DNA of 64,000 nucleotides from an uncultured bacterium (GTDB taxonomy: Bacteria > Arandabacterota > Arandabacteria > Arandabacterales > JALGWA01), in assembly GCA_964604955.1 (NCBI GenBank), contig CAZSBE010000002.1:194-64193 (forward strand). Direction: 5' to 3'. The notes under the pieces are model-generated. The model searched no databases. It had not been told where the DNA came from and saw only the letters and a list, made by a program, of their open reading frames with translations. Shown piece after piece: positions 1 to 15,616 of the stretch; the first letter of the stretch is position 1, and the number at the start of each line of letters is the position of its first letter. Both the position numbers and the translations under genes were made by a program.

Positions 1-27
1 CAACCATCACGCGCGGCAGGTCGACCG

Positions 28-813
28 TCATTCCCGCCCCCCGCGCCAGATCCTGATGAGCTCGGCGGTGATGCTGACTGCGATCTCCCCGGGCGTTTCC
101 GCATCTATGTCAAGCCCCACGGGAGCGTGCACGCTGTCCAGGAACTCCTGCGGCACGCCCCGTTGCCTGAGTGCCGAGTAAACACTCTCAATCTTCCGCC
201 GGCTTCCGACCATCCCGACATAGCGGAGCCCGAGACCGCTGAGCGCTTCGAGCCATTCCCCGTCGAGCGCGTGGGCGCGCGTCGCGATAACCGCGAAAGA
301 CCCCGCGTCCATGTCCAGCCGCCGCTCGAAATCACCCGGCGTTGCTTTGGTGCATCGCACGGTTGCCGGCAGGCCGGCGCCCGTCAGGAATTCATCACGA
401 TCGTCCATCAGCGTCACTGCAAAGCCGGCTGCATCCGCCGCCACCGCGAGCGCCCTCCCGACATGGCCGGCTCCCACGACGAAGAGATTCCGGTACTCTC
501 CAAGGGCCTCGAGAAAGACCTTCATGCCTCCGCCGCAAACCGAGTCGACCTCGCCGCTCTTGCCTGAAAGATCGAGATCGACGATCCGGGCCTCGCCTGT
601 TTTCAGAATCCCGGGCGCCGCGGCCAGCACCATCTTCTCGACGGCGCCTCCCCCGACAGTCCCGAAGGTCTCCCCGGTCGAGGCAATGACCATCTTCGCC
701 CCGGCCATGCGCGGCGTGGAGCCCCTCGCTTCGATGACGGTGGCGATGCACACTTTCCGCCCCACACGCAGCCACTCGCTTGCCTTCTCGAGGACCTTTT
801 CGATCTCACCCAA
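28..813 (-). CDS. XdhC/CoxI-family molybdenum hydroxylase accessory protein (YqeB-like)
   Basis: 261 aa. It has a Rossmann-like GxGxxG segment (VVGAGHVGRALA) and overall XdhC family similarity. It overlaps the downstream mocA-like stop by 8 nt. Confidence 0.8.
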   Translation of the reverse strand: MGEIEKVLEKASEWLRVGRKVCIATVIEARGSTPRMAGAKMVIASTGETFGTVGGGAVEKMVLAAAPGILKTGEARIVDLDLSGKSGEVDSVCGGGMKVFLEALGEYRNLFVVGAGHVGRALAVAADAAGFAVTLMDDRDEFLTGAGLPATVRCTKATPGDFERRLDMDAGSFAVIATRAHALDGEWLEALSGLGLRYVGMVGSRRKIESVYSALRQRGVPQEFLDSVHAPVGLDIDAETPGEIAVSITAELIRIWRGGRE

Positions 814-1417
814 TCTGATTCAGTCTCCTCTTTATCTCGTTGAAGTCGCCATGCGTATCCACATCGATGAGAATTCCGTCCGTATCGACGGGGACTTCCG
901 CGACGTCGTTCCCCTGTTTATCGATAAGGTCCCTGGCGCCCCGGTCGCCCTGAAGGCCGTAGACCTCGCTCTCCATATCCGCGCTCAGGATAACCGGGTG
1001 GCCGCGCTCGCCGCCATAAACCGGAACTCCTATCCTGCGCCCCGACGCGACGTACCCCGCGATCACCGAGTCGATGACCTCCGATGTGACCAGAGGTTTG
1101 TCGGCCAGCGATATCAGTATGGCATCCGGCCTCCACATCTCCGCCGCGCGCTTCCATCCAGCCTTGAGCGACTTGCTCATCTCGCACTCCCCGGCGAGGC
1201 TCACGAAATCGACACGGTCGCACCCGTTGCGCTGGATCACCCCATCAAACCCTTCGAGCCAGCCGGGTACGACGGCGCAGATGCGTCTCACCGAGCTCGC
1301 CAGGTGATTCCCGAGCACATGCTCGAAGAGAGTGCCGCTTCCCAGCCTTAGAAGCATCTTGGGCTCACCCATCCTCTTCGAACACCCGCCTGCCAGGAGC
1401 AGACAGTCGATATCCAC
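806..1417 (-). CDS. mocA: MobA/MocA-like molybdenum cofactor nucleotidyltransferase
   Basis: 203 aa. The N-terminal LLAGGCSKRMGEPKML motif is typical of MobA-like NTP transferases. It sits between XdhC and YqeC as in Se-dependent Mo hydroxylase clusters. Confidence 0.8.
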   Translation of the reverse strand: MDIDCLLLAGGCSKRMGEPKMLLRLGSGTLFEHVLGNHLASSVRRICAVVPGWLEGFDGVIQRNGCDRVDFVSLAGECEMSKSLKAGWKRAAEMWRPDAILISLADKPLVTSEVIDSVIAGYVASGRRIGVPVYGGERGHPVILSADMESEVYGLQGDRGARDLIDKQGNDVAEVPVDTDGILIDVDTHGDFNEIKRRLNQIG

Positions 1418-1424
1418 CTCTCTC

Positions 1425-2237
1425 TCACCTCATTACCGCGAAAGCCTCTTCAACCGCGCGGCCGACCGAACCGATGACGACGCCTTCCACTTCACCCGAG
1501 GAAACGAGCCGGTGGGCCAGCGAGACCACCGGGTTATCCTCCACGGGAGTACATTCATCACCCGCGGGCAGGACATCACCCGGAACCAGCTTGTTCACCA
1601 GGACCAGCATCCGCGCCCCGGCCGGCCTGCGGCCCAGGTACGAATCGGGTGACAGCACGGTGGCGGCGATCACCGCGTCGTCGATGAGCGCATCGACCGG
1701 CACGCCCGCGACTTTCGCCACAGCATCCGGGTTGTAGACGGCGGCCGAGTTTACTTTCTCCCCGATGCAGTCGGCGCCGACGACCACGACGTATACACTT
1801 GTCAAAGACGGCAGCGGCGGCTCGTGGGCCTCGGGCACCTTGAGGGATCTGCCCCGGGCGCCGTCGCACTCCGAAACCACCGCCCAATCAGGGTTCTCCC
1901 GCGACACCTGGTCGACGAACTCCGGACTGTGCCCGATTATCTTACCGCCGGCCTCCGACCTCCCCGTGAGGGCGAAGCCACGCGCCTCGACCATGCCCCT
2001 CAGGACCTCGATGTGGGACGCATTGCCTTCACCCAGCGCGACCTCCGGCATAGTCCCCTCGGCCGGCTCCATTATCCTGGTCGTCGTCGTCGCAATCACG
2101 GGGATACCCGACGCTGCGAACTCGCGGACCAGGCGGTACATGAGCGACGTCTTGCCGCCCGCGCCGACGATGCTGACGACATCTCCGGGACCCGCGTTCA
2201 GAGCGCCGCGGAGCGACGCCTTCCTGCCGATCATCAT
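1425..2237 (-). CDS. yqeC: YqeC-family putative selenium-dependent hydroxylase accessory protein
   Basis: 270 aa. It has a P-loop-like VSIVGAGGKTSLM segment and YqeC family architecture. It is adjacent to mocA and xdhC. Confidence 0.75.
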   Translation of the reverse strand: MMIGRKASLRGALNAGPGDVVSIVGAGGKTSLMYRLVREFAASGIPVIATTTTRIMEPAEGTMPEVALGEGNASHIEVLRGMVEARGFALTGRSEAGGKIIGHSPEFVDQVSRENPDWAVVSECDGARGRSLKVPEAHEPPLPSLTSVYVVVVGADCIGEKVNSAAVYNPDAVAKVAGVPVDALIDDAVIAATVLSPDSYLGRRPAGARMLVLVNKLVPGDVLPAGDECTPVEDNPVVSLAHRLVSSGEVEGVVIGSVGRAVEEAFAVMR

Positions 2238-3403
2238 TTCTTCAGACCGGCTACGATATTCTCAAAGCTCTTCAAGGCCTTCTTGATGTTCTCAATCGAG
2301 TTCGCGTACGAAAGCCTGAGATAGCCCTCTCCGAAGCTGCCGAAAGCGGTGCCCGGCAACACGGCCACGCCGCCCTCATTGAGGAGCTTGTCGGAGAGCA
2401 CCTGTGCGCTTACGCCCGTTCCCGTTATGTTGGGGAACACGTAGAACGCACCCTTGGGCAGCAGGCATGTTACGCCGTCTATGGCATTGAGCCCTTCGAC
2501 GATGACGTCGCGCCTCTTCTTGAACTCGGCTACCATGGCCCTTGAGGCGGCCTGGTCGCCCTTGATGCCTTCAATGCCGGCCATCTGCGTGAAAGTGCAT
2601 GTGCAGGACGTGGCGTTGATTTGAAGCTGCGTCATCGCCTGCGCCAGCTCTTCCGGCATCACGCCGTAGCCGAGCCTCCAGCCCGTCATGGCGTAAGTCT
2701 TGGAGTAGCCGTCGATGATGATGGTCCGCTCCCTCATTCCGGGGAACACCGCGATGCTGTTGTGCTCGCCTTCGTACACCATCTCCGAGTAAACCTCATC
2801 GGAAAGCACCCAGAAGTCTTTTTCAACGGCCAGCCCGGCTATGGTCTCGAGATCCTTCTTGGGAATCACACCCCCGGTGGGATTCTGCGGCGAATTGATG
2901 ATCATCATCTTGGTCTTGGAGGTCACCTTGTTCTTCAGCTCATCGACGTCAAGGGAGAAGCCCTTGCTTTCGTGAAGCTGAATGGGAACCGCCCTGGCCC
3001 CCAGGAACTCGATAACCGACTCGTAAATCGGGAAGCCCGGGTTCGGGTAGATCACCTCGTCGCCCTCATTGACTAGCGCGAGCATGCCGAAGAACATGAT
3101 GGGCTTGGCGCCGGGCGTTACAACCACCTGCTCGGGTTTTATGTCGATCTTCTTGCGCTTCGAATCGACTTCGGCTATGGCTTCACGGAGGTCGACGACG
3201 CCCTGCGCCGAGCAGTAATGCGTGTACCCGTCCCAGATGGCCTTCGCGGCCGCCTCCCTGATATTGTCGGGCGTGTCGAAGTCCGGCTCACCTATCTCGA
3301 GGTGAACCACTTCTTTCCCCTTGGCTTCGAGAGCTTTGGCCCTGGCCAGAACCTCGAAGGCGCTCTCGGTACCCAGTCTTGACATTCTCTCGGCAAGCTT
3401 CAT
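2234..3403 (-). CDS. PLP-dependent class I/II aminotransferase (aspartate aminotransferase family)
   Basis: Typical AspAT start MKLAERM. Motifs include EPDFDTP, NSPQNPTG and the lysine motif YSKTYAMTGWRLGY. A GGAGGAGG ribosome-binding site lies just upstream of the ATG at 3403. The ORF track shows an 11-codon longer alternative start. Confidence 0.85.
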   Translation of the reverse strand: MKLAERMSRLGTESAFEVLARAKALEAKGKEVVHLEIGEPDFDTPDNIREAAAKAIWDGYTHYCSAQGVVDLREAIAEVDSKRKKIDIKPEQVVVTPGAKPIMFFGMLALVNEGDEVIYPNPGFPIYESVIEFLGARAVPIQLHESKGFSLDVDELKNKVTSKTKMMIINSPQNPTGGVIPKKDLETIAGLAVEKDFWVLSDEVYSEMVYEGEHNSIAVFPGMRERTIIIDGYSKTYAMTGWRLGYGVMPEELAQAMTQLQINATSCTCTFTQMAGIEGIKGDQAASRAMVAEFKKRRDVIVEGLNAIDGVTCLLPKGAFYVFPNITGTGVSAQVLSDKLLNEGGVAVLPGTAFGSFGEGYLRLSYANSIENIKKALKSFENIVAGLKK

Positions 3404-3425
3404 TATCCTACCTCCTCCAACTCGC

Positions 3426-3851
3426 TCAGTCTTCAAACCGGAGCAGTTTGAGCCCTGTGTCTCCGTCCACCTCTCTTACCATGCGCGTACCCGAGACCAT
3501 TACGGCTATTTCGTTCGTCATATGGACATTCGCGGAAATCAGATGGCCCGCCACGGCGCTGCCGTCCTTGCGGCCCGCGGTGACGTGCATGTGGATGACC
3601 GGGTCCCCCTCGAAGGTGGAGATGTTGCCGCTTAAGGCACAGAGTTCCACCTCTTCCCCGACTTCGAAGGTCTCGTATTTCCCGTCACCGGCATAGTAGC
3701 CCAGCCGGGCGCCGCTCAGCATGCCCACACCGCCCAGCAGAATGCCCGAAGTCACTCCCTCACTTTCCAGCGCCGCCCTGAGGCACTCGAGAAGGTCATC
3801 GCCGTGACCCAGGCGTATCAAAACGAGATTGCCGCTTCTGCCCGTTACCAA
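3426..3851 (-). CDS. PPC/DUF296 domain protein
   Basis: 141 aa. It shows the DUF296 (PCC) fold signature with a glycine-rich core. Confidence 0.6.
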   Translation of the reverse strand: MVTGRSGNLVLIRLGHGDDLLECLRAALESEGVTSGILLGGVGMLSGARLGYYAGDGKYETFEVGEEVELCALSGNISTFEGDPVIHMHVTAGRKDGSAVAGHLISANVHMTNEIAVMVSGTRMVREVDGDTGLKLLRFED

Positions 3852-3854
3852 TTC

Positions 3855-4331
3855 CTAACTCCTTCCATCTTCGGCATGAGACTCCTCTATGGCGTCCACT
3901 ATCTTCCTGTAGCCGGTACACCTGCAGAGCACGCCCGAGATCGCCGCTCTTATCTCATCGCGTGTCGGGTCCGGGTTGGTTCTCAGGAACGACTCTCCGA
4001 CGAGTATCATCGCCGGAGTGCAGAAGCCGCACTGCACGGCTCCGCGTTCCACGAAAAGCTGCTGCATGCGGCTCAGGCGCTCGCCCTTGGCGATCCCCTC
4101 TATGGTGGTAATCGACTTGCCGTCGGCCTGGAAGGCGAAGGTTATGCACGAGAGAACGGGCCTGTCCTCGATGAGCACCGTGCAGCTCCCGCAGTCCCCC
4201 TTCCCGCAGCCCTGCCGGGTCCCGGTCAGGCCCAGCCTGTCCCGGAGGAAACTGAGCAGGCTCAGCGACGTCGCGACTTCGGCCTCGACCCTGTCGCCGT
4301 TCACCCTGAGATTGATCCTGACTGTTTCCAC
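3855..4331 (-). CDS. (2Fe-2S)-binding small subunit of a molybdenum hydroxylase (CoxS/XdhC-small-like)
   Basis: Cys motifs CGKGDCGSC and CGFCTPAM...CRCTGY. I took GTG at 4331 as the start because it avoids overlap with the upstream gene. AGGA sits upstream. An alternative ATG lies at 4394. Confidence 0.75.
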   Translation of the reverse strand: METVRINLRVNGDRVEAEVATSLSLLSFLRDRLGLTGTRQGCGKGDCGSCTVLIEDRPVLSCITFAFQADGKSITTIEGIAKGERLSRMQQLFVERGAVQCGFCTPAMILVGESFLRTNPDPTRDEIRAAISGVLCRCTGYRKIVDAIEESHAEDGRS

Positions 4332-4351
4332 ATCGGCCAATTCAGCCCGTC

Positions 4352-5578
4352 CTATTCTTGTCCCAGAGCGCGTTCCACTTCTGAAATGTCGCACCCGATG
4401 TCGGTCACGAGGTCGCGTGACTTCAGCGCCTCCGGGTCCTTGAGGCCGCTTCCCGTGACCAGGAATACGACCCTCTCTTCTCGCTTGATGATGCCGTCAC
4501 GCGAAGCGCTGAGGAGCCCCGCGAACGCGGTCGACCCCGCCGGTTCCGCGAATACCCCGGTGTGGCGGCCGAGAAGCTCTATCGCCGACACTATCTCCTC
4601 ATCACTCACCGTCACCGCGGTGCCGGCTGACTCCTTAAGACCTTTGAGCGCCTTTCTCCAGTTCCGGGGCTTTCCGACCCTTATGCTGTCGGCGAGCGTC
4701 CGCGGCTCCGCGCAGTAGGCCTCGCCCCTGCCGAGGAAGCACTCCACGACGGGGCTGCAGCCCTCGGCCTGCACGCCCAGTATTCTCGGGAGGCGGTCGG
4801 TGACGCCCGCGGCCATGAGATCCTTGAATGCCTTCCACTGCCCGCTCAGGATGCAGCCGTCCCCCACGGGAACGACCAGCCAGTCGGGCACGCAGTATCC
4901 CAGCTGTTCGTATATCTCGAGCGAACACGTCTTCTTGCCCTCGACCAGGTAGGGATTGATGGCGCAGTTTCGGTTGTACCAGCCCCATTTGTCGATGGCC
5001 GCGGTGGCGACATCGAAGGCGTCCTCGTAAGTACCCTTCACCCTGAAGACCTTCGTGGCGCAGGCGCCGATCTGGTAGAGCTTGGGCTCGGGGGCGCTTT
5101 CGGGAACGAATATGTAAGAGTCGACGCCTACCGACGCCGACAGCACCGCCAGCGAGGAGGCGGCGTTGCCCGTGGAGGCGCAGGCGATGGCGTCCCTCCC
5201 GTCCTCGACGGCCATGGCGATACCGACTGCGGACGCCCGGTCCTTGAGCGAGCTGCTCGGGTTGACCGTATCGTCCTTGAGGTAAACCTCGTCGATGCCT
5301 GTAAGATCGGTCAGCTTCTCGAACCTGTAGAGCGGAGTCATGCCGACCTTGAGCATGCCGGGAGGCGGCTGCGTCAGCGGCAGGAAGTCCTGGTACCTGA
5401 AGATATTGTTCACATGCCTCGACTGCAGCGGGCTCTCCTCGAGCGAACGGCGGAGCTCGTCATAGTCGTACTCCACATCGAAGATGCCCTCGATCCCGCA
5501 TTCGGGGCAGGTCACGAAGTCGCCTTTTTCATAGCGTTTCCCGCATTTGAGGCAGACGAGACCGGTCACCTTACCCAT
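4352..5578 (-). CDS. PLP fold-type II enzyme, threonine-synthase-like, with N-terminal Cys4 zinc ribbon
   Basis: PLP-lysine motif SSSLKDRAS. Zinc ribbon CLKCGKRY...CPECG. The glycine-rich GSTGNAASS is present. The start is at MGKVTGL. The large ORF-track N-terminal extension has no support. Confidence 0.75.
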   Translation of the reverse strand: MGKVTGLVCLKCGKRYEKGDFVTCPECGIEGIFDVEYDYDELRRSLEESPLQSRHVNNIFRYQDFLPLTQPPPGMLKVGMTPLYRFEKLTDLTGIDEVYLKDDTVNPSSSLKDRASAVGIAMAVEDGRDAIACASTGNAASSLAVLSASVGVDSYIFVPESAPEPKLYQIGACATKVFRVKGTYEDAFDVATAAIDKWGWYNRNCAINPYLVEGKKTCSLEIYEQLGYCVPDWLVVPVGDGCILSGQWKAFKDLMAAGVTDRLPRILGVQAEGCSPVVECFLGRGEAYCAEPRTLADSIRVGKPRNWRKALKGLKESAGTAVTVSDEEIVSAIELLGRHTGVFAEPAGSTAFAGLLSASRDGIIKREERVVFLVTGSGLKDPEALKSRDLVTDIGCDISEVERALGQE

Positions 5579-6959
5579 TGAGGTCACCTCCACCGGCATC
5601 CCGCTCGACAAACCTCCCGTCACCGGCCGCGCCCAGGAACTTACCATCCCGGACGATGACCCTGCCCCGCTGGACGGTGACGTCGGGGAACCCGGAGAGC
5701 GTGTCGCCCTCATAGGGCGAGTAGTCGCAATTCATGTGAAGCGTCCCGGGGCTTACCCTGACTTCTCTCGCGGGGTCAATGACGATGAGATCGGCGTCGC
5801 TCCCGACGCGAATCACTCCCTTGCGGGGGTAGAGCCCGAAAAGCCTCGCCGGATTCGAACACAGCACCTCCACCAGCCTTTCCAGAGGCAGCCGCCCTTC
5901 GTTGACGCCATGCGTCATGAGTATGGGTAGAAGCGTCTCCACCCCGGGCAGCCCGAAGGGTATCTTCCGGAAGTCCCCGCCCCACATGTCCTTCTGCTTG
6001 CGGGTGAAGCTGCAGTGGTCCGTGGAAACCACCTGTATGGAGCCGTCCGCCACGGCGCCCCACAGGTAGTCGCAGTCTTCCTGGTAGCGTATCGGCGGGC
6101 AGGTGGCGTAGAGGTGGCCGTCCGGACCCTCGAATGCCCCGTTGTTGAGCATGAGATACTGGGGGCAGGTTTCAGTGAAGACCGGGTATCCGCAGGCCTG
6201 CCACTCCTCGGTGACTCTCGCCGCGTCTGATGTGGACATATGCACTATGTATACCCGGGCGCCGCTGGCGGAGGCGAGGAATATGGCGCGCTGGACGGCC
6301 TCGCTCTCCGAGAAATTCGGCCTCGACAGCGCCTGCTGGACGGCGTCCGTCCTGCCGGCGTCCACCGAGCGCCTGGTAAAGACATCTATAATGTAGGGGT
6401 TTTCGGCGTGAACGCAGACGGTGGCCCCCAGCGACGCGGCTTCCTCGAAACACTCGAACATGATGCCGTCGTCGGCCATCCATCCCTCTTCCTTGTAGAT
6501 CATGAAGAGCTTGAAACTGGGTATGCCCGCGTCGACGAGCTCCTTCATCTCCCCGCGGGTCCTGTCATTCCAGTCGGTTATGCCGCAGTGGAGGCCGAAG
6601 TCTATCGCGCTCTTTGCCGCGGCGACTTCCTTTCTCCTGGCGACGGCCTCGGCGAGCGACTCGCCGGCGGTCTGAATCGCAAAGTCGATCATTGTGGTCA
6701 CACCGCCGAAGGCTGCGGCGATCGAGCCGGAAGTGAAGTCATCCGAGGACACCGTGCCGCAGAACGGGATCTCCATGTGGACATGCACGTCTATTGCGCC
6801 CGGCAGGATGAGCTTGCCGGCCGCGTCGACCGTCGAGGCGCCTTCGATGCCGACTGCCGGCGACTCGATGGCGGCGATCTTGCCGTCCCTTATGCCTATG
6901 TCGCCCCTGTACGTCCCGGACTCGCCGGCAATAGTCCCGCCCTTAAGCACCAGATCCAT
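5571..6959 (-). CDS. Dihydropyrimidinase / D-hydantoinase (cyclic amidohydrolase)
   Basis: It starts MDLVLKGGTI. The metal-binding motif is DVHVHMEIPF, with KLFM and D...H signatures of the hydantoinase family. Confidence 0.85.
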   Translation of the reverse strand: MDLVLKGGTIAGESGTYRGDIGIRDGKIAAIESPAVGIEGASTVDAAGKLILPGAIDVHVHMEIPFCGTVSSDDFTSGSIAAAFGGVTTMIDFAIQTAGESLAEAVARRKEVAAAKSAIDFGLHCGITDWNDRTRGEMKELVDAGIPSFKLFMIYKEEGWMADDGIMFECFEEAASLGATVCVHAENPYIIDVFTRRSVDAGRTDAVQQALSRPNFSESEAVQRAIFLASASGARVYIVHMSTSDAARVTEEWQACGYPVFTETCPQYLMLNNGAFEGPDGHLYATCPPIRYQEDCDYLWGAVADGSIQVVSTDHCSFTRKQKDMWGGDFRKIPFGLPGVETLLPILMTHGVNEGRLPLERLVEVLCSNPARLFGLYPRKGVIRVGSDADLIVIDPAREVRVSPGTLHMNCDYSPYEGDTLSGFPDVTVQRGRVIVRDGKFLGAAGDGRFVERDAGGGDLNG

Positions 6960-8166
6960 AGCGTTTCCCTTCTTCTTCTCCGCCGGCCTCGTCGGCGTCG
7001 ACCCTCTCCATGGTGATGCATCCGGGTGAGGGGCAGACCTGCATGCAGAGCGAACAGCCGAGGCATCTGGATTCGCTGACAACCGGGTAGCCGCCTGGTC
7101 CGATGCTGATGGCGTTGCCGCCCGCGTCCCTGCAGGAGATGTAGCAGAGGTCGTCCCTGAGGCACATCCCGGTTCTTATGCGGGGCACCGACCTGGTCGT
7201 CCCCAGGTCTTCGTATGTGACGATGTTCTTAAGCAGCCGTCCCTCCATCGCCCTGACGCCGGCGAAGCTGTTCCGCTTGAGGTAGTCCGTGAGGCCGCGG
7301 GCGAGGTCATCCACCATGGCAAACCCGTGGAACATGACTCCCGTGCAGACCTGTATCGCGCGTGCGCCGACGAGCAGGAACTCGCAGGCGTCCTGCCAGG
7401 CCATGATGCCGCCGACGCCGCTCACTTCAAGCGAAGTCGCCGCGCGCAGGTCCGCCACGACCCTCAGGGCCATTGGTTTCACCGGCGCCCCCGAAAGGCC
7501 CCCCGGCGAGGTGAGGCCGTCGATTGACGGATGTATTTCGAGGTTCTCGATGTCGATCCGGCCGAGACCCGGCACGGTGTTTATGGCGGAAACGCCCCGC
7601 GCGCCGGCGCTTTCGGCGACCTGCGCCACTGTGGCGACGTCGCCGGCGTTGGAGCCCAGTTTGACGATGATGGGAACGCGCGCGGCATCCCGGACGGCGG
7701 CAGTCACTTCCCGCGTCAGCTCCGGGTTCTGCCCGATCGAGAGGCCCATTTCATGGTTGCCGACTCCATGCGGGCACGACAGGTTGAGCTCGAGCGCGTC
7801 CGCGCCGGCCCGGCCGCACCTGTCGGCCATCAGTCTCCAGTCGGCGAGCTTGTAGGCGGGAGCGGCGATGCTCGCGATGAGCATCCTGTCCGGGAAGGTC
7901 TTCTTCACAGACTTGATGTCCTCGAGCCAGGCGTCGAGGTCGCGGTCGCTCAGGAGCTCGAGGTTGAGAAAGCCGCCACCCACGCTTGCGAACCTGGGGC
8001 TCAGGCGGACGCCCGAAGCGGGCTCAAGGGATATGGTCTTGGTCACGGCACCCGCCCAGCCGGCTTCGAAGCCGCGGGCGATATGACCCGCGTCCCGGGT
8101 GGCCGGGCCCGAAGCCAGGAGGAATGGGCTCCTCAGGGCGAATCCACAGAAATCGGTGCTGAGCAT
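6943..8166 (-). CDS. preA: PreA-like dihydropyrimidine dehydrogenase subunit (DHODH-like domain plus 2x[4Fe-4S] ferredoxin domain)
   Basis: Dihydroorotate-dehydrogenase-like TIM-barrel core. C-terminal CLGCSLCMQVCPSPGC ferredoxin motif. Confidence 0.8.
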   Translation of the reverse strand: MLSTDFCGFALRSPFLLASGPATRDAGHIARGFEAGWAGAVTKTISLEPASGVRLSPRFASVGGGFLNLELLSDRDLDAWLEDIKSVKKTFPDRMLIASIAAPAYKLADWRLMADRCGRAGADALELNLSCPHGVGNHEMGLSIGQNPELTREVTAAVRDAARVPIIVKLGSNAGDVATVAQVAESAGARGVSAINTVPGLGRIDIENLEIHPSIDGLTSPGGLSGAPVKPMALRVVADLRAATSLEVSGVGGIMAWQDACEFLLVGARAIQVCTGVMFHGFAMVDDLARGLTDYLKRNSFAGVRAMEGRLLKNIVTYEDLGTTRSVPRIRTGMCLRDDLCYISCRDAGGNAISIGPGGYPVVSESRCLGCSLCMQVCPSPGCITMERVDADEAGGEEEGKRYGSGA

Positions 8167-8187
8167 CTCCGAACTCCGCGTCTGCAG

Positions 8188-9051
8188 CTATTGCCGAGGT
8201 TTGACGAGTTCTTCGTAGGTGTCCGGTCTCCTACCCTCATAAAAATGCCAGAGACCCCTCACGCTTTCAATCAAAGAAAGATCCAGGTCGGCGACAATGA
8301 CATCGTCTCCGGAATCGCTTCCCTTTGCAAGGACTTTGCCCGCCGGGTCGCAGAAATAGCTCGAGCCGTAGTACTTGCCGCTCTCCCAGGGCTTCTCGAG
8401 ACCCACGCGGTTCAGCGCCCCCACGAAATAGCCGTTGGCGACGGCGTGGGCCCGCTGCTCTATATCCCAGAGATGGCGCGACAGCCCCTCGACGGTCGCC
8501 GACGGGTTGAAGACGATCTCGGCCCCTTTAAGACCGAGCGCCCTCGCCCCCTCGGGGAAGTGCCGGTCATAACATACGTAAATGCCCACGCGCCCGAACT
8601 CCGTGTCAAAGACGGGATAGCCCATGTCGCCGGGCTCGAAGTAGAACTTCTCGCGAAAGCCCTCCAGGTCCGGAAGGTGCATCTTCCTGTACTTGCCCAC
8701 GACTTCACCGTCGGTTCCTATGAGCACCGCCGTGTTGAAGTACTTGCCGCCTGCCTTCTCCGCGAGGGGAGCGACGAGCACAATGCCCAGCCGCCTGGCG
8801 ACGTTTCCCATCCTGGCCGTGGTCTCGCCGGGTACGGTCTCGGCGAGGTCAAGCCACCGCCGGTCCTCCCCGGCCGGAAAATAGGGCGCGTAGAAAAGCT
8901 CCTGAAGGCAGACGATGCTGGATCCGCGCGAAGCCGCCTCTTCTATCATGGGAATCTGCCTTGCGATCATGGCCTCTTTTACGGACTGGATCGGGCCCGA
9001 CGCATCGGGGCATCCCGTCTGGATCAAGGCGCATGTCACTGTCCTGGCCAT
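8188..9051 (-). CDS. N-carbamoyl-amino-acid / beta-ureidopropionase-type amidohydrolase (nitrilase superfamily)
   Basis: Nitrilase-superfamily catalytic cysteine context VCYDRHFPE and overall CN-hydrolase fold. It follows the hydantoinase and DPD genes. Confidence 0.8.
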   Translation of the reverse strand: MARTVTCALIQTGCPDASGPIQSVKEAMIARQIPMIEEAASRGSSIVCLQELFYAPYFPAGEDRRWLDLAETVPGETTARMGNVARRLGIVLVAPLAEKAGGKYFNTAVLIGTDGEVVGKYRKMHLPDLEGFREKFYFEPGDMGYPVFDTEFGRVGIYVCYDRHFPEGARALGLKGAEIVFNPSATVEGLSRHLWDIEQRAHAVANGYFVGALNRVGLEKPWESGKYYGSSYFCDPAGKVLAKGSDSGDDVIVADLDLSLIESVRGLWHFYEGRRPDTYEELVKPRQ

Positions 9052-9117: not shown

Positions 9118-9146
9118 CGCCTAAATTAAAGCCGCTACAGGGCGGC
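9118..9146 (-). terminator. Possible intrinsic terminator after the PMT-like gene
   Basis: On the minus strand there is GCCGC-CCUGUA-GCGGC, then UUUAAUUU. The stem is only 5 bp, so this is weak. Confidence 0.25.
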
Positions 9147-9204
9147 AGGATAGTATAACACCGGAGCGGAGGAGTGTCAATCGGGGCAGCGCCGGGGGCC
9201 GGGA

Positions 9205-11619
9205 CTAGGGGCCTTCGAGTCTCCCCAGGGCGGCCTGGGCCTGGTCGCGCGCCGTCCCCGGCGGGGCGGTCTCGAGGTATTTTCTGTACGTCTCGCGGGC
9301 GCGGGCCCCGTCGCCCGTTCTCTCGTATGCCACCGCCAGGTTGCCCCGGGCCGTGAGGAGCAGCGGGCTGGCCTCGAGGGCGCGCTCGAAATAACGGATT
9401 GCCGAATCGGGCTCGTCCGTCCTCAAGAAAGCCAGCCCCATGTCGGAGAGCAGGTTCGCATCATCCGGAGCGACTTCGAGTCCGGCCCTCACGGCACCGA
9501 ACGCCTCGTCGCAGCGTCCCAGACCCATGAGAACCGTAGCCTCCGAATGATAGGGGTGAGGACTGTGAGGCTGGATGTCCCGTGCCGTCCTGATCTGCTC
9601 GATGCCGAGGTCGGGGTTGCCGGTATAGGCCAGGGCTATGCCCAGGCCGATATGGGCGTTGACGGTTGCGTTGTCCCGCGACAGGGCCTCGCGGTAATAG
9701 TGCATGGCCGTGGTGTAATCGCGCTTCCTTGAATAGGCATTGCCCAGGTTGGAGTACATCGGAGCTGGATTCGGGTTGCCCCTGAGGGCCTTTTCGTACT
9801 CGGTGATGGCCAGGTCGACATTGCCGCCCATATAATAGAGGCTGGCGAGCATGTCATGGGCTTCGAAGAAGTCGGGGTCGATGGCGACGGCCCGCTCCGC
9901 CATCAGGAACGACTCGCGCGGCGAGCCCAGCTCGAGAAGAAGTCTGGAGGCGTATATATGCGTGCCCGCATCGTCGCCAGCCGCGGCAACCGCCGCTCCG
10001 ACCGATGCCCTCGCGCCCGCTGTATCCCCGGCCGCTATACACCATCTCGCCAGGTGAAGGTGATACGTGCCGCTGAGAAGCCTCGAGTTGTAGTCCCTCC
10101 TGTCGCCGTCGCGTCCGCGCACCTCAAAGCGCTCGGGCGGCAAGCACTCTCTGCCCTCGCTCTCAAGGGCATACACCATGCCGCAGATATCGGCGTCGTA
10201 CCCGGCGACCACCGGCGGCACGGGCCCCACAAGCGCGAGGTCCGCCGGGCCCAAGGCCTCCACGAACCACTGCACGCATTCATCCACGTTCCGGGGGCCC
10301 GCGGGAAGACCCGCCGCCCGCGGGTTGGACGAGCCCAGCACGAAGACCCGGGCCGGGGCGTTTTCCACAAGCGAGACGTAGAGCAGCGGAAAATCGAGGG
10401 CGCTGCCGCTTCCTATCAGCAACGGCTCCGGGGCGCTCTCATCGCGCGCGCTCTCGACCGCGGCCATCGCATAGTCATGTGCGAACCAGGCGTCATGCCG
10501 CCTCTCGAGCGAGACGAGGTTGGTAACGAATATGAGCGAAACGCCGGCGAGGACGGCCGGCCCCGCCGCCCTGTTGAGCCTCGCCAGTCTCTCGATGAGG
10601 AAGCCGGCGCCGAGGGCGGCGAAGACCCCTACCGTGATGAGGGCCGGGAAGACGTGGCTGTCGATATCCGGGATATTGTATGCGGCCGAGTGGACCCCGT
10701 AGAAAACGAAGACCAAAAGCGCGCCGGCCAGCAGTCTCCATCTCTTGATCGAGACGGCCAGCCCGAGAAGCGCCAGGGCCGAAAGCCACAGGCCCCCCTG
10801 CGCGAACATGAGCCGCAGATAGGCGCCGAAATCGGCGAGCCTCGCGCCGGCTTCGAGGGGTTTCACTCTCCACTTGTAGCCCTGAGCGGTAATGTGGGAG
10901 ATGAAACCGTCAAGCGTCGACGTCTCGCCCCAGGTCAGGGGCGGAGCCTGCGCCGAGCGTATGGGTATGTAAAGCCACACCGTGAGCCCGAGCATCAGAA
11001 AGAGCAGCGCGACGACGACCGCGTTGAGCCTCGGCCTCACCCCCGATACGAGAAGGCCTATTACGGCCGCGGCCAGCGCGTACACCAGGCTGAGGTGATG
11101 GGATACTGCGAGCCCGCCCGCGAGTCCCATGAGCACAAGCACGCTGTCACCGCGCCTCGCGCCGGCCAGGGCAATCAGCAGCAGAGCCGTGACGAAAACG
11201 GCGTTAAGCGTATAGACCTCCGCCCCGGTGGCCTGCAGCCACCAGGCTTCGCGCGTGGCGAGGCCCAGGGCCACCACGACCCCCGCCCACCTTCCGGCCC
11301 CGAGGCCCCTGGCGACCAGATAGACGAAAGCGGTGAGAACCGAGGCGAGAACCGCGGACATGAGATTGTAGCGGTATGCCACCGACCCGAAGGCGAAGAT
11401 GCTGGAGAATATCCTGCCCAGCATGAGATAGAGCGGATAGCCGGGCGGATGCGCGACGCTCAGCGTGCGCGACGCTGCGATCAGCTCCCCGGCGTCCCCG
11501 GGCAGCACGCTGGGCGCCAGCGTGACGATGTAGATGAGAAGGGTCACGAAGAAGATGCAGACACATGCAATAATGTCCGGGCGGGCGCCCGCATCCGGTC
11601 GTCCGGTCAAAGAAATCAT
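9205..11619 (-). CDS. Polytopic membrane protein (DUF2723 / PMT-like GT-C fold) with C-terminal TPR repeats
   Basis: About 11 predicted TM helices in the N-terminal 470 aa. The C-terminus has multiple TPR units (for example AYSRKRDYTTAMHYYREAL). Confidence 0.6.
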   Translation of the reverse strand: MISLTGRPDAGARPDIIACVCIFFVTLLIYIVTLAPSVLPGDAGELIAASRTLSVAHPPGYPLYLMLGRIFSSIFAFGSVAYRYNLMSAVLASVLTAFVYLVARGLGAGRWAGVVVALGLATREAWWLQATGAEVYTLNAVFVTALLLIALAGARRGDSVLVLMGLAGGLAVSHHLSLVYALAAAVIGLLVSGVRPRLNAVVVALLFLMLGLTVWLYIPIRSAQAPPLTWGETSTLDGFISHITAQGYKWRVKPLEAGARLADFGAYLRLMFAQGGLWLSALALLGLAVSIKRWRLLAGALLVFVFYGVHSAAYNIPDIDSHVFPALITVGVFAALGAGFLIERLARLNRAAGPAVLAGVSLIFVTNLVSLERRHDAWFAHDYAMAAVESARDESAPEPLLIGSGSALDFPLLYVSLVENAPARVFVLGSSNPRAAGLPAGPRNVDECVQWFVEALGPADLALVGPVPPVVAGYDADICGMVYALESEGRECLPPERFEVRGRDGDRRDYNSRLLSGTYHLHLARWCIAAGDTAGARASVGAAVAAAGDDAGTHIYASRLLLELGSPRESFLMAERAVAIDPDFFEAHDMLASLYYMGGNVDLAITEYEKALRGNPNPAPMYSNLGNAYSRKRDYTTAMHYYREALSRDNATVNAHIGLGIALAYTGNPDLGIEQIRTARDIQPHSPHPYHSEATVLMGLGRCDEAFGAVRAGLEVAPDDANLLSDMGLAFLRTDEPDSAIRYFERALEASPLLLTARGNLAVAYERTGDGARARETYRKYLETAPPGTARDQAQAALGRLEGP

Positions 11620-13736
11620 CTGCCTCTCGACACAACTGCGAACTTCGTATGGGCGGACAGGTCCGCTGTCTCGTCACGCACGTTCATCTTGAGGACGCAC
11701 ACATAGAGCCCCGGAGCGAGGTGCCCGGCGTTTCCAGAGAGGCTTGCGAGCGGCAACTTGAACTCGGGTGCATCGATCAGCCCCTCACCCCTGAGAACCC
11801 GGAGGCCCGTCACGTCAAAGACCTCGATGAGGTAGCTTGCAAGGAAGTTCGTCTGGCTCGTGAATATGTCGGCTGTTATGACCGCGTCGTTCGGACTCTC
11901 AACCGGATTGGGGTAGAAATGCAGGTTCTCGAGCCTGGCGGTCACCGGGCTTACAGTCAGCGTCACGGTCGCCTGGTTGTTGCCCACATCGCTTTCTACA
12001 TCTTCGTCCACCGGAACAAGTGATATGGAGTAATCGATGTCGCCGTAGTCGCTCAGGCTGGTTTTCCAGGTGGCGGCCGCCTCGGCGATGCCACCGGCGA
12101 CCGCTTCAAGCCCAACCGGGCCCTCATGAACCACCGGGCCCGTGCCGTCCCTGCCCTGCCTCACGGTGAACGTGTAGACGGCCGGCCCCGAAAGGGGGCC
12201 TCCCACGTTCAGCGCCCTGACGGTCGCTGTAAGATCGCTTCCGGCCACCAGCGGGTAGCCGCTCGACCGGCCCTCCCAGCCGAACTCAATGCTCGCGGGA
12301 GTCACCACGAGGTCGCTCAGGGAGTCCCCCGGAATGTCGGCAAAGCGGAGCATGTACGCAGCGACCAGCCGCACGTTGTCGGCGACCTGGTCGAAGTCGA
12401 CGTTGCCGAGCGTGTCGCCCAGCGTGTGATAATGGGGAGTCAACGGTTCGGGGAGATAGCCCAATGTCTGGGCTCCGATCATGAGGGCGGGAATCCCCTG
12501 CCACCAGAACGGTGCATGATCGCTGTTGTGGATCTCCGGGCGAAAGCGGTCTATGAATTGCGTCTGCAGGCCCAGGTTGTCCGCCGTCTCCTGAAGGGCC
12601 TCCGTAATCCAGCCATCGCGATATCCATATACGATCTCGATCCACTTCTCGGCTTCGGTGTATCCGACCATGTCGATGTTGATCACCCCTATTATCGTGT
12701 CATTCGCCGCGAGGTTTTCAGCATAGTAATCGCTGCCAAGCAGCCCGATCTCCTCGGCGGACCACAGGGCGAAAGTGATGCCGAAATCGAACTTCTGACC
12801 GGCGAGCAGCCGCGCGCACTCGAGTACCGTGGTCGCGCCCGAAGCGTTGTCATCCGCTCCCGGGGCAGCGTCTGTCCGCCAGTCCCAGCCCGGCTGCCTG
12901 ACTCCTATGGCGTCGTAGTGGCCACAGATGATATAACGGGCGCTCGTTCTGGTGCCGGGCAGGTCGGCGACTATGTTCACGAAAACAGTATCCTGACCCT
13001 TGTAATACTCGGGCAGCTCCGGTTCGAACTCCTGCTCCCATACCGCCCCGCCTGCGGGAAGAACGTACTGCTCCAGTCGCTGCCTTATATAGGGAGTAAT
13101 GTTCTGTTTGAGGTCATAACGAGCACAGAACCGCGACCTGTACCTGCCGGAGGAGCCATCGAAGTTCATGAAGTATATGGTCTTCTCCACGCTATCGGGA
13201 CTCGCCCCCTCGGTAATCGACCTGATAAAATGAGCGCGCGGCCGCGTCATCGGTCTCTCTGCAAGCAGCTTTTCATGTAGTTCCTCACCTGCAGGCCGGC
13301 CGAGGAGGGCGTTGACCGGGGTGAATTTCACTCGCGAGATAGAGTAGCCGCTGTCCAGGACCATGTAGGCCCGGTCGACTTCACCCGAGAAAACCGTGAT
13401 GCGCTCTGTGCGGTAAACGAGGTCCACGCCTGCCGCTCCCAGAATCTCATCCGGCACCGGATAGGGCGAGTTCCACAGGGGCGCGTCACCTCTGGACCCC
13501 AGCACGTGGACTCCTCCGGCCGAAAGAGCAGCCGGATCGCCTCCCGGCACATCGACAAGCAGCTCGCCGGGCCCGGTGAAAAACCCCCTGAGCGGCTCCA
13601 TACGCGCTTCCAGGATAGCCTCATCCGCCGTCATCACCACCAGCTGCGAACCCGGTTCACCTACCGGGGCTCCCCATATCAGCAGCGTGGCCAGAACCGC
13701 AAGACCGCATGAGACGAATTGCGCCGGCTTTTTCAT
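11616..13736 (-). CDS. Secreted M28-family zinc aminopeptidase with C-terminal FlgD-Ig/T9SS-type sorting domain
   Basis: Signal peptide MKKPAQFVSCGLAVLATLLIW. M28 motifs HYDAIG, DDNASG and SAEEIGLLGS. The tail FYPNPVES...YVCVLKMNVRDE resembles a Por/FlgD C-terminal domain. Confidence 0.75.
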   Translation of the reverse strand: MKKPAQFVSCGLAVLATLLIWGAPVGEPGSQLVVMTADEAILEARMEPLRGFFTGPGELLVDVPGGDPAALSAGGVHVLGSRGDAPLWNSPYPVPDEILGAAGVDLVYRTERITVFSGEVDRAYMVLDSGYSISRVKFTPVNALLGRPAGEELHEKLLAERPMTRPRAHFIRSITEGASPDSVEKTIYFMNFDGSSGRYRSRFCARYDLKQNITPYIRQRLEQYVLPAGGAVWEQEFEPELPEYYKGQDTVFVNIVADLPGTRTSARYIICGHYDAIGVRQPGWDWRTDAAPGADDNASGATTVLECARLLAGQKFDFGITFALWSAEEIGLLGSDYYAENLAANDTIIGVINIDMVGYTEAEKWIEIVYGYRDGWITEALQETADNLGLQTQFIDRFRPEIHNSDHAPFWWQGIPALMIGAQTLGYLPEPLTPHYHTLGDTLGNVDFDQVADNVRLVAAYMLRFADIPGDSLSDLVVTPASIEFGWEGRSSGYPLVAGSDLTATVRALNVGGPLSGPAVYTFTVRQGRDGTGPVVHEGPVGLEAVAGGIAEAAATWKTSLSDYGDIDYSISLVPVDEDVESDVGNNQATVTLTVSPVTARLENLHFYPNPVESPNDAVITADIFTSQTNFLASYLIEVFDVTGLRVLRGEGLIDAPEFKLPLASLSGNAGHLAPGLYVCVLKMNVRDETADLSAHTKFAVVSRGR

Positions 13737-13747
13737 CAGTAGTCTCC

Positions 13748-15616
13748 TTAGAACCTCACTCCGTAGTCGAACCTGAGGTCTTCTCTTCTCTCGCCGGTAT
13801 CGTAGGAAGTCGAACCGAACTTGAGCGTGGCCGACCCGGCGCTCCCCAGTTTGAGAACCCCTATAAGATACCACCGCGAGCCGTCGCTTTTCAACATCTC
13901 TAATGACGGGTAGTACGGGAGCCCGGGTTCGTACTGGAAGAGGCGCGCGGAGTAGTCTTCCACTCTGAATGCGTGAAAGCCGCCCTTGAGCGTGAACCGC
14001 CGGGCCGCCTCCAGGCGCGTATCGAGCCGCACCAGGTCCGAGTAGTAGCTCTCTCGGCGCCCCCCGGCCTCCACCCTGGACCGCTGGCCTTCGATGCGGA
14101 GCCTGAGCCAGAGGATTCTGTGCGGCCTGTACTCGAGGTCGAGCCGGGTGCGGTATCTTGACCTCTCCGACGTCACATCGTCGATCCCCTCGGGCGGCTC
14201 CTCGGCCGCAGTTATCTTCTCGGACGCCTCCATCCGGAAGTCTCCGAAGCCGATGCCGAGTTCGAAGAGCGTCTCAGAACCGGTCGGGTTCAGGCCCCTG
14301 CCGGCCCCGAGGTCTTTGCGGTGAATGTCATTGCTGATCGCGATCAGCGTGCGCGGAGCCGGTTTCAGCGTGAGGCGAAGGAGGAGCCCCTCCTCGCCCG
14401 CCGTCTCGCGCGCGTAGGACGAGAATGGCCGGGAGTGAAGGCTGAGATAAGTCCGCGCATACTTGCGGCCGAGCGCCAGAAGGTCCAGGCCGGGCCGCTC
14501 GAAAGCGATGCCCCCCAGGAAGGCCGTTCCTCCGGCCCCTGAGAAAGCGGCCTCCCCGAATACGCCGAAATCGTCACCCATGTAGGTGAGGTCCACGGAT
14601 GCCAGGCGGTTGGTCCTGCCTTCGACCCAGGGGAAGGCGCCGGCGGCGAATCCCCCGCCGAACCTCGCAAGCGAGAGGCTCATGCCCCCGCGCACCCGCC
14701 CGCGGCTTGAGCGCAGCGCGAATCCTGCAAGGTCTTCGCGGAGCGTATCCCTGCCTTCGGTCTCGGTCGGCGTTACGTGGATTCCCGAGGTCCGTATGTA
14801 CTCGACCTCGCCGTCTTCGTTTAAGGTGGCGTCCAGATGGGTGCTGGATAGCGCGACGCAGAATTCGATGCCGCGGGCCGCGAGCGAGAGCGCCGCCCCG
14901 CCGAGGGCGAAGTTCTCGACCGTCGAGGTGTAAGGCTTGAGCCCGAAAGCCCGGCGGCTCAGTCGCCACGGGCCTATGGTGGACGGCGAGTAGCCGTAAG
15001 GGCCCGAGAAAACGAGCCCGTAGCCCGAGTTCAGGAAGTAGCTGCCCGCCACGATATGCACCCTCGACCACCTCTTCTGCACATAGACGGACTGGAAATC
15101 GTTCAGGCGAGTCTCAAGCCGGTCTTTCTCGACCGTAAGGCCCAGTCCCAGGCCGGAGTAGTCACCTCGAACCGTAAAGTAGGTCTTGTTGGCTTCGATC
15201 GCTGACCGCGGGGGGCTGGATATGAACCTCAGCCTTGCGGTCCCCGTCGGGCGCAACGCTTTCTCAACCGGCTTCACCACGACGAACGGGGCAAGCAGTT
15301 CAACCGTCTCGGCCGTCACGCCTTCGATTCGCGTGAGGTCGTCAAGCGAGCCGAGTTCGCCCGCCTCCCTCAGGTCGACTATCCGGGCGGCAAGCCACGG
15401 GCTGACCCACGGAAGCGCGGCCATGGTTTCGGGGTCGGCGTCGGTCAGATTGATGGGGTCTTTAAGGGCGGCGTCCAGAATGCTGAGAAGGTCCAGGTAC
15501 TCCTCCTCGGACTCCACGTTCTTGAATATCTCATCGCCGGTTTGGCCGAAACACGGGCCGGAGGCTGCGAGGAGAATAAAGCACACTGCGAGCGGAAGGG
15601 GAATGAACGATCTCAC
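13748..15616 (-). CDS. Outer-membrane beta-barrel protein with N-terminal ComEA-like helix-hairpin-helix domain
   Basis: Signal peptide. The HhH motif is INLTDADPETMAALPWVSPWLAARIVDLREAGELGSLDDLTRIEGV. There is a long beta-rich region ending in the C-terminal aromatic ...DYGVRF. Confidence 0.65.
   Translation of the reverse strand: MRSFIPLPLAVCFILLAASGPCFGQTGDEIFKNVESEEEYLDLLSILDAALKDPINLTDADPETMAALPWVSPWLAARIVDLREAGELGSLDDLTRIEGVTAETVELLAPFVVVKPVEKALRPTGTARLRFISSPPRSAIEANKTYFTVRGDYSGLGLGLTVEKDRLETRLNDFQSVYVQKRWSRVHIVAGSYFLNSGYGLVFSGPYGYSPSTIGPWRLSRRAFGLKPYTSTVENFALGGAALSLAARGIEFCVALSSTHLDATLNEDGEVEYIRTSGIHVTPTETEGRDTLREDLAGFALRSSRGRVRGGMSLSLARFGGGFAAGAFPWVEGRTNRLASVDLTYMGDDFGVFGEAAFSGAGGTAFLGGIAFERPGLDLLALGRKYARTYLSLHSRPFSSYARETAGEEGLLLRLTLKPAPRTLIAISNDIHRKDLGAGRGLNPTGSETLFELGIGFGDFRMEASEKITAAEEPPEGIDDVTSERSRYRTRLDLEYRPHRILWLRLRIEGQRSRVEAGGRRESYYSDLVRLDTRLEAARRFTLKGGFHAFRVEDYSARLFQYEPGLPYYPSLEMLKSDGSRWYLIGVLKLGSAGSATLKFGSTSYDTGERREDLRFDYGVRF

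Follow-up and report, generated by a model that had tools for sequence, protein, structure and literature searches.

Two preprints from 2025 (10.1101/2025.05.19.654654; 10.1101/2025.04.24.650524) defined the reductive uric acid/2,8-dioxopurine pathway, described in gut bacteria, in which XdhD-YgfM (DOPDH) is followed by YgfK or the PydA homologue UacX, SsnA, HyuA, YgeW together with YqeA (or UacY), YgeY, and YgeX. SsnA is a robust marker of uricolytic clusters, and some steps are interchangeable: the PydA/PreA-family reductase UacX can stand in for YgfK, and hydrolases for YgeW (10.1101/2025.05.19.654654). According to the 2025 literature, YqeBC and SelD are present in every gut strain that has the uricolytic cluster, and DOPDH requires SelD. 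The published marker trio of selenium-dependent molybdenum hydroxylases (SDMH) consists of YqeB (TIGR03309), YqeC, and YgfJ/MocA (PMC2276186).

The locus analyzed here comprises ten genes at positions 28-9051 of a 64-kb stretch of contig CAZSBE010000002.1 from an uncultured bacterium (the whole stretch is referred to as the window). A first reading of its letters (the original prediction) had described accessory genes of a labile-selenium molybdenum hydroxylase fused to a reductive pyrimidine/hydantoin catabolic cluster. Our best explanation, to which as a whole we give a probability of roughly 0.55, is that the ten genes make up two-thirds, on the promoter side, of a ~19-kb co-directional array in a bacterium related to Candidatus Eisenbacteria, that this array is a variant of the selenium-dependent 2,8-dioxopurine/reductive uric acid purine pathway and not a pyrimidine cluster, and that a CN-hydrolase and a distinct PreA replaced the SsnA of sister lineages in the sublineage of the window.

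Gene identities, family membership, operon structure, and synteny

Family calls were scored against the curated cut-offs of Pfam and NCBIfam (in bits; a score above the cut-off was taken as passed). The features, in the direction of transcription, were as follows (Moco, molybdenum cofactor; PLP, pyridoxal phosphate):

9152..9180, minus strand: sigma-70-like promoter, TTGACA-17 nt-TG-TATACT (11 of 12 consensus matches and an extended -10)
9131-9146, minus strand: leader hairpin and T-tract, GCCGC-CCTGTA-GCGGC TTTAATTT, directly downstream of the promoter
8188..9051, minus strand: CN-hydrolase, N-carbamoyl (ureido) amidohydrolase (PF00795, 214 bits)
6943..8166, minus strand: PreA-type FMN/2x[4Fe-4S] reductase (DHO_dh, PF01180, and Fer4_21; NF006183, 398 > 335)
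5571..6959, minus strand: HyuA-type D-hydantoinase/dihydropyrimidinase (Amidohydro_1; TIGR02033, 487 > 393)
4352..5578, minus strand: threonine-synthase-like (ThrC-like) fold-II PLP enzyme (PALP; N-terminal CxxC...CxxC zinc ribbon)
3855..4331, minus strand: CoxS/XdhC-type 2x[2Fe-2S] small subunit of molybdenum hydroxylase (Fer2 and Fer2_2)
3426..3851, minus strand: PCC/DUF296 protein (PF03479; solved relatives 2h6l, 3htn, and 2dt4, all uncharacterised)
2234..3403, minus strand: class I (aspartate-type) aminotransferase (Aminotran_1_2; all equivalog models below cut-off)
1425..2237, minus strand: YqeC, selenium-cofactor accessory protein with P-loop GAGGKTS (PF19842, 128.5 bits vs 27.6; TIGR03172, 140.4 vs 73)
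806..1417, minus strand: MocA/YgfJ-like molybdenum cofactor cytidylyltransferase (NTP_transf_3)
28..813, minus strand: XdhC-family Moco insertion chaperone (XdhC_CoxI and XdhC_C)
1..31, minus strand: YqeB-domain gene (TIGR03309), first 10 codons (MTVDLPRVMV); an eleventh gene, cut by the edge of the window

All ten open reading frames (ORFs) of region 28-9051 were located on the minus strand and are transcribed from 9051 to 28, and Pfam agreed with every domain call of the original prediction. Three genes start inside the longest ORF (HyuA, 6959; ThrC-like, 5578; aminotransferase, 3403), and the gene for the Fe-S subunit has an alternative start at 4394. Using the corrected starts, inter-gene distances were between -17 and +22 nucleotides (nt), and the description of the genes as co-directional and overlap-coupled was therefore right. 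The promoter was found in a 153-nt gap 5' of the first gene (CN-hydrolase). Promoter and leader were identical in the window and two relatives (L001 and L010), and the GATTGACAC...TGTTAT(C/T)AT architecture also preceded the first cluster gene of L009, L012, and L015. The leader (~50 nt) was 100% identical in L001 and L010, with the coding regions differing by 10-25% at the protein level. The leader hairpin could be an attenuator or the site of a regulator; no riboswitch or other Rfam family was detected in the 5' leader or the whole 9.6 kb. Genes further upstream were unrelated to the array: a TPR/TMEM260-like protein and an M28-family peptidase (11616-13874, minus strand; 700-750 amino acids). 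The latter was kept as the upstream neighbor in 10 clade loci, and in L008 a PreT-PreA pair was located just upstream of the M28 peptidase gene.

Sequence beyond position 1 was inferred from syntenic relatives, in which YqeC was 39-76% identical to that of the window. The most informative was L001, a 224-kb metagenome contig with the same gene order as the window, a YqeC of 75% identity, and a Rho that clusters with the Rho of the window at 90% identity. After XdhC, this contig encoded a YqeB domain (273 amino acids; TIGR03309, 281 > 220), an XdhB/CoxM-type FAD subunit, the M20 hydrolase YgeY (cut-off passed, 441 > 321), RarA, carbamate kinase (YqeA; cut-off passed, 393 > 358), adenine deaminase (cut-off passed, 632 > 472), and a BMP-family binding protein (Bmp). 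YgeY and carbamate kinase were thus seen in L001 just past the edge of the window, outside the window itself.

When the species genomes of GTDB were scanned with a profile built on a YqeC alignment, a clade of metagenome-assembled genomes (MAGs) labeled 'bacterium' or Candidatus Eisenbacteria was obtained. In gene maps of at least 14 species-level GTDB genomes and several metagenome contigs, the same core order recurred (brackets indicate optional genes): (ThiS/MoaD-like)-(HyuA)-(SsnA)-ThrC-like-(CysK-like)-Fer2-PCC-aminotransferase-YqeC-MocA-XdhC-YqeB-FAD-YgeY-(OTC)-RarA-(carbamate kinase)-adenine deaminase-Bmp. Because of this recurrence, the arrangement is not due to chance. The sublineage of the window (the window, L001, and L010) differed in that the array opened with CN-hydrolase, PreA, and HyuA and contained no SsnA. 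The OTC of some relatives was ArgF-type, not YgeW. Past Bmp, three genomes encoded a transporter ATPase and permeases, and otherwise unrelated genes.

Two further genes were noted in sister lineages. A ThiS/MoaD-family gene (74-76 amino acids) headed the array in L006 (3559-3789), L008 (3706-3930), L014, L017, L019, and L020, and a CysK-type cysteine synthase (369 > 351) directly followed the ThrC-like gene in L009, L012, L015, and L016. A sulfur- or selenium-carrier link of these genes to the ThrC-like enzyme is conceivable.

Assignment to purine or pyrimidine degradation

Purines were favored over pyrimidines as the substrates of the array because of the SsnA of sister lineages, YgeY, carbamate kinase, adenine deaminase, and the nucleoside-type transporter. 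SsnA scored above the NF005540 cut-off in two sister lineages, L008 and L009 (481 and 457, respectively, vs 444). A locus of Sporomusaceae (Firmicutes; L045), in which XdhA-like, HyuA, and PreA-like genes lie beside YqeB, YqeC, and MocA, was also counted in favor of this assignment.

In the pathway that we infer, along with its substrates, its step order, and the parts played by the CN-hydrolase, PreA-type, and ThrC-like proteins, purines or nucleosides would enter via the BMP-type ABC transporter, with hypoxanthine then formed by adenine deaminase. A molybdenum hydroxylase, the 2Fe-2S and FAD subunits of which are encoded in the array, would then bring the purine up to dioxopurine level. The molybdopterin cytosine dinucleotide cofactor of this enzyme would be made by MocA and inserted by XdhC, and the labile selenium would be added by the split YqeB and YqeC, with SelD encoded elsewhere. 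The PreA-type flavoprotein may reduce the ring, in the role of YgfK or UacX, and the hydantoinase would open it. The ureido groups would be removed by the CN-hydrolase and YgeY, with carbamate kinase possibly harvesting ATP, and a PLP enzyme, possibly the remodelled ThrC-like protein, would release the C3 skeleton.

The first three genes of the window carry most of the ambiguity. The best solved relatives of the CN-hydrolase were beta-ureidopropionases (2vhh, E = 9e-54; 6ftq, 1.5e-50), followed by N-carbamoylputrescine amidase and D-carbamoylase (1erz, 1e-35); it passed no NCBIfam equivalog cut-off, and was present in 4 of 24 clade loci, all from the sublineage of the window. The PreA-type proteins formed a subfamily of 16 members at 71-100% identity, with the next relatives at no more than 47%; between that of the window and the PreT-linked PreA in L008, identity was 41%. 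There was no PreT/GltD-like gene in the 64-kb window or in L001, and tblastn with the E. coli reference did not detect YgfK at the locus. HyuA and its E. coli counterpart shared 38% identity across 459 amino acids, and the gene was kept in many clade loci.

Several observations speak against a purine pathway. The three genes are exactly those of the classical reductive pyrimidine pathway, PreT excepted; the PreA of the window was 31% identical to the UacX-like protein of L045, and closer to generic PreA (41-47%); and tblastn detected neither SsnA in the window, L001, and L010 nor YgeW or YgeX in the sublineage of the window. For MocA, TIGR03310 was the best NCBIfam match, at 119 bits below the cut-off of 186. 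SelD gave no tblastn match (E. coli SelD query) in the 64-kb window or the clade loci. Furthermore, the large (catalytic) molybdenum subunit was missing. When E. coli XdhA and XdhD were used in tblastn searches within 10 kb on either side of YqeC, it was detected in 0 of 24 clade loci vs 17 of 66 loci of other lineages. Pfam on large ORFs and tblastn did not reveal it in the 55 kb upstream of the array in the window, where PreT, SelD, SsnA, YgeX, and YgeW were likewise not detected, and a downstream walk via Bmp homologues, which added ~10 kb in L091, L092, and L094, contained no large subunit.

In the rival explanation that these observations bring forward, CN-hydrolase, PreA, and dihydropyrimidinase form a true reductive pyrimidine module (uracil/thymine to beta-amino acids) that is co-transcribed with the selenium/purine set in a composite operon. 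In its favor, the PreA passed the equivalog for PreA of NAD-dependent dihydropyrimidine dehydrogenase, the hydantoinase passed the dihydropyrimidinase model, the nearest solved relatives of the CN-hydrolase were beta-ureidopropionases, the purine-specific ring opener SsnA was lost in the sublineage of the window, and PreA resembled the UacX-like protein less than it did generic PreA. Because of the classical trio (without PreT) and the beta-ureidopropionase-like CN-hydrolase, a pyrimidine role of this module stays a serious rival. We nevertheless consider it rather unlikely: PreT was absent from both the 64-kb window and L001; the hydantoinase, which lies beside SsnA in the purine-type array, is an ancestral part of it; PreA constitutes its own tight subfamily that is confined to this array; the CN-hydrolase is present in arrays that lack the OTC-type carbamoyltransferase, as a ureido-cleaving substitute would be; and PreA-family reductases and hydantoinases are both established parts of purine pathways. 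As to the pyrimidine/hydantoin cluster of the original prediction, the PreA and dihydropyrimidinase models were both passed; the context (SsnA of sister lineages, YgeY, carbamate kinase, adenine deaminase, and the transporter) pointed to purines rather than pyrimidines.

The ThrC-like protein passed the broad model TIGR00260 (212 > 167) and missed NF006050 (291 < 303). When aligned to the solved threonine synthases 2zsj, 6cgq, 2d1f, and 1uim, it differed in two motifs, in each case in 19 of 19 clade copies: STGNT was replaced by STGNA, and N-SVNPxR(I/L)EGQKT by NRNCAINPYL(V/A)EGKKT, so that Ala takes the place of Thr and of Ser, and Leu that of Arg. We take these positions to be Thr88, Ser155, and Arg160 of T. 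thermophilus threonine synthase, residues that bind the substrate phosphate and were invariant in the four solved structures. Since conserved pocket residues were replaced clade-wide, an ordinary threonine synthase is an unlikely identity for the protein. With YgeX missing, it may take over the terminal PLP step.

Not all genes in the block appear to belong to a pathway. The class I aminotransferase named in the original prediction was present; however, it is probably a housekeeping passenger. Aminotransferase, RarA, adenine deaminase, and Bmp were 70-91% identical across the clade, vs 40-50% for YqeC and MocA. In L095, which is more distantly related, aminotransferase, RarA, and Bmp were found side by side without selenium or purine genes. 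Because of this adjacency in L095 and the far higher conservation, the aminotransferase and RarA were regarded as housekeeping passengers, and look like an older housekeeping backbone with which pathway genes were interleaved. The RarA/MgsA AAA+ recombination factor itself was located amid the array in every relative (73-79% identity; 15119-16474 in L001), at the same position in L004, L006, L008, L009, L012, L013, L017, L019-L021, and L094, and between aminotransferase and Bmp in L095. The PCC protein directly followed the Fe-S subunit throughout the clade (22 of 24 clade loci, and 0 of 66 YqeC loci of other lineages). The PCC, ThrC-like, and aminotransferase proteins were also considered as general partners of SDMH, and were rejected because they accompany YqeC in this clade only.

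In another explanation, the block is mainly a conserved gene order with no common function, in which housekeeping genes (ThrC-like, aspartate-type aminotransferase, RarA, and, in some lineages, cysteine synthase) and unrelated catabolic genes travel together, and the fusion would have no meaning as a pathway. The adjacency in L095, the unequal conservation described above, and the CysK-type gene inside the array of some lineages agree with such an explanation; we regard it as improbable, since at least nine genes of the array have counterparts in the experimentally defined purine clusters of E. coli and Clostridium, genes overlap by 4-17 nt behind one conserved promoter, and sites that are invariant in threonine synthases are substituted throughout the clade in the ThrC-like protein, which is therefore not an ordinary ThrC.

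Selenium and molybdenum genes, and other features of the window

The link of the locus to the labile-selenium molybdenum-hydroxylase accessory system, as originally proposed, holds. The YqeC call was confirmed when the profile search was run (TIGR03172, 140 > 73), and the protein had invariant P-loop columns and 31% identity with E. coli YqeC. On the other hand, XdhC, MocA, and YqeC had been named as the marker trio; YqeC and MocA do belong to it, but the XdhC-like protein corresponds to no more than the N-terminal half of YqeB, which is split here, and the diagnostic domain is encoded by the next gene. The product of the xdhC gene was generic by NCBIfam, with no match to the YqeB model TIGR03309. 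E. coli YqeB aligned with it through residues 2-250, and with the next gene in L001 through residues 271-524; since the two halves align with two successive genes, YqeB is split in two here. In the window, 9 of the 10 residues of MTVDLPRVMV were the same as in the N-terminus of the L001 YqeB-domain orthologue, and the ATG of this gene overlapped the stop codon of XdhC as ATGA. In two Eisenbacteria MAGs (L013, 3160-3260; L014, 9400-9500), XdhC and the YqeB domain were in-frame and parted only by TGA-GCA-ATG, a junction that by its sequence is one mutation short of a fused, E. coli-type YqeB. Selenocysteine or read-through at this in-frame TGA was rejected; it is an ordinary stop, with an ATG two codons later.

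The best NCBIfam matches of the Fe-S subunit were 4-hydroxybenzoyl-CoA reductase gamma and the Fe-S subunit of xanthine dehydrogenase, both below cut-off, and it was 44% identical to E. coli XdhC(Fe-S). This Fer2 subunit was found in 22 of the 24 clade loci, none of them with a large subunit, in contrast to other lineages, in which Fer2 near YqeC was accompanied by the large subunit in 17 of 17 cases. There was no unassigned ORF of at least 250 amino acids within the arrays of the clade gene maps. Under the preferred purine reading, the molybdenum catalytic subunit, which was never linked, must be encoded elsewhere. The large subunit and PreT had been expected just beyond position 1; neither they nor SelD were present for ~20 kb downstream in three syntenic relatives, and the space is filled by the YqeB domain, FAD subunit, YgeY, and the genes that follow. 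A large subunit nearby, the absence of which the original prediction had named as a refutation, was found neither in relatives nor in the 55 kb that the window adds upstream. Across a clade at the level of a candidate phylum, the Fe-S and FAD subunits and the selenium/Moco maturation set stay together and the catalytic subunit is never linked; this consistent unlinking is the single odd feature of the array.

The unlinked 2Fe-2S (CoxS-like) and FAD (CoxM-like) proteins might instead provide the NAD(P)H-to-Fe-S electron input for the PreT-less PreA, giving a new three-component reductase. Both were intact clade-wide without a nearby large subunit, unlike the invariable pairing of Fer2 with the large subunit elsewhere; PreA lacked PreT; and UacX of C. 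difficile was reported to need an alternative electron donor (10.1101/2025.05.19.654654). However, most clade loci have Fer2 and FAD with no PreA nearby, L008 also has a normal PreT-PreA pair, and MocA, XdhC, YqeB, and YqeC make sense only when a Moco enzyme is present, which renders this possibility very doubtful. A bolder combination also appears quite unlikely, namely that the Fe-S/FAD pair feeds a non-canonical partner (the PreT-less PreA, as a three-component dioxopurine/dihydropyrimidine reductase, or several unlinked molybdenum subunits that share it) and that, at the same time, the ThrC-like protein took over the C-N lyase step of YgeX.

Under the preferred purine reading, SelD is also required. 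The window encoded the selenocysteine-specific elongation factor SelB:

34878-36767, minus strand: SelB (GTP_EFTU and SelB winged-helix domains)

Its neighbors were EPSP synthase and ADP-ribosylglycohydrolase; no selA, selD, or tRNA-Sec was found beside it, and no tRNA anywhere in the window. The presence of SelB indicates that the organism uses selenocysteine, and SelD should therefore exist elsewhere. This fits the published observation that selD is far from yqeB in genomes that also use selenocysteine (PMC2276186).

Two other regions of the window were noted. Four HD-GYP-type (HD_5) proteins were encoded on the minus strand (46280-47395, 47794-50361, 58532-59827, and 59982-61280), some with GAF and histidine-kinase domains. 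The same stretch encodes a further histidine kinase with a GAF domain (50402-52777) and a GGDEF-domain response regulator (52774-53757); from its domain content, this is a dense neighborhood of putative c-di-GMP signalling. A release-factor ORF (38949-40628, minus strand; 559 amino acids), in which the PCRF and RF-1 domains start at residue 213, probably has an internal true start or a prfB-type frameshift that joins two frames.

Comparison with known systems

The closest counterpart is the E. coli ygeW-ygeX-ygeY-hyuA-yqeA/yqeB-yqeC/mocA-ygfK-ssnA-ygfM-xdhD cluster, and its suggestion for comparison in the original prediction was apt. HyuA (38%), YqeC (31%), YqeB (35-48%, both halves), MocA, and the Fe-S subunit (44%) are shared with the array; past the edge of the window, relatives also share YgeY (39%), the carbamate kinase YqeA (47%), and the YgfM/XdhB-type FAD subunit (31%), and sister lineages share SsnA. 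In contrast, the array is without the XdhD/XdhA large subunit, YgfK, YgeW, and YgeX, its YqeB is split, and its Fe-S domain is free-standing, not fused to the molybdenum domain. CN-hydrolase, PreA-type, ThrC-like, and PCC proteins, adenine deaminase, and the BMP transporter are added. The array is fully co-directional, and its host belongs to an environmental FCB-type lineage, not to Enterobacteria or Firmicutes.

The UacX-UacY clusters of C. difficile and Clostridium sporogenes (10.1101/2025.05.19.654654; PMC11448449) share with the array a PF01180 FMN/Fe-S reductase without the FAD/NAD(P)H domain, which in the array may stand in for YgfK, a plain hydrolase in the probable place of the carbamoyltransferase and carbamate-kinase step, and a probable dependence of the pathway on the YqeB and SelD trait. 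The substitute in the array is a CN-hydrolase, not a D-aminoacylase-type amidohydrolase, and Clostridium keeps the molybdenum subunit in the cluster; the PreA of the window was no more than 31% identical to the UacX-like protein of L045. With the reductive pyrimidine pathway (PreT-PreA/PydA, PydB, and PydC), the array shares PreA, dihydropyrimidinase, and the beta-ureidopropionase-like CN-hydrolase as adjacent and overlapping genes. It differs in the lack of PreT, the first position of the gene for the last enzyme, the placement of the trio within a purine/selenium array, and the separate PreA subfamily. With regard to the SDMH set of Haft and Self in 2008 (TIGR03309/TIGR03172/TIGR03310; PMC2276186), YqeC passes, the YqeB domain passes in the orthologous neighbor, and the array likewise has adjacent MocA-like and XdhC genes and a selD that is presumably distant; however, there is no large subunit in the extended locus, and MocA is below the equivalog cut-off.

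The array would thus be a recognisable but rearranged version of the pathway in uncultured environmental bacteria related to Eisenbacteria. Its natural swaps, in which SsnA, YgfK, and YgeW would give way to the CN-hydrolase and PreA-type protein, a remodelled ThrC-like protein stands where YgeX would be, and YqeB occurs as two genes, may help define which steps are interchangeable. It is unusual in this enzyme family for the molybdenum subunit to be set apart so consistently from its Fe-S/FAD partners and maturation genes, and this is a question for whole genomes. The biology of the locus extends these known systems, and is not of a new kind.

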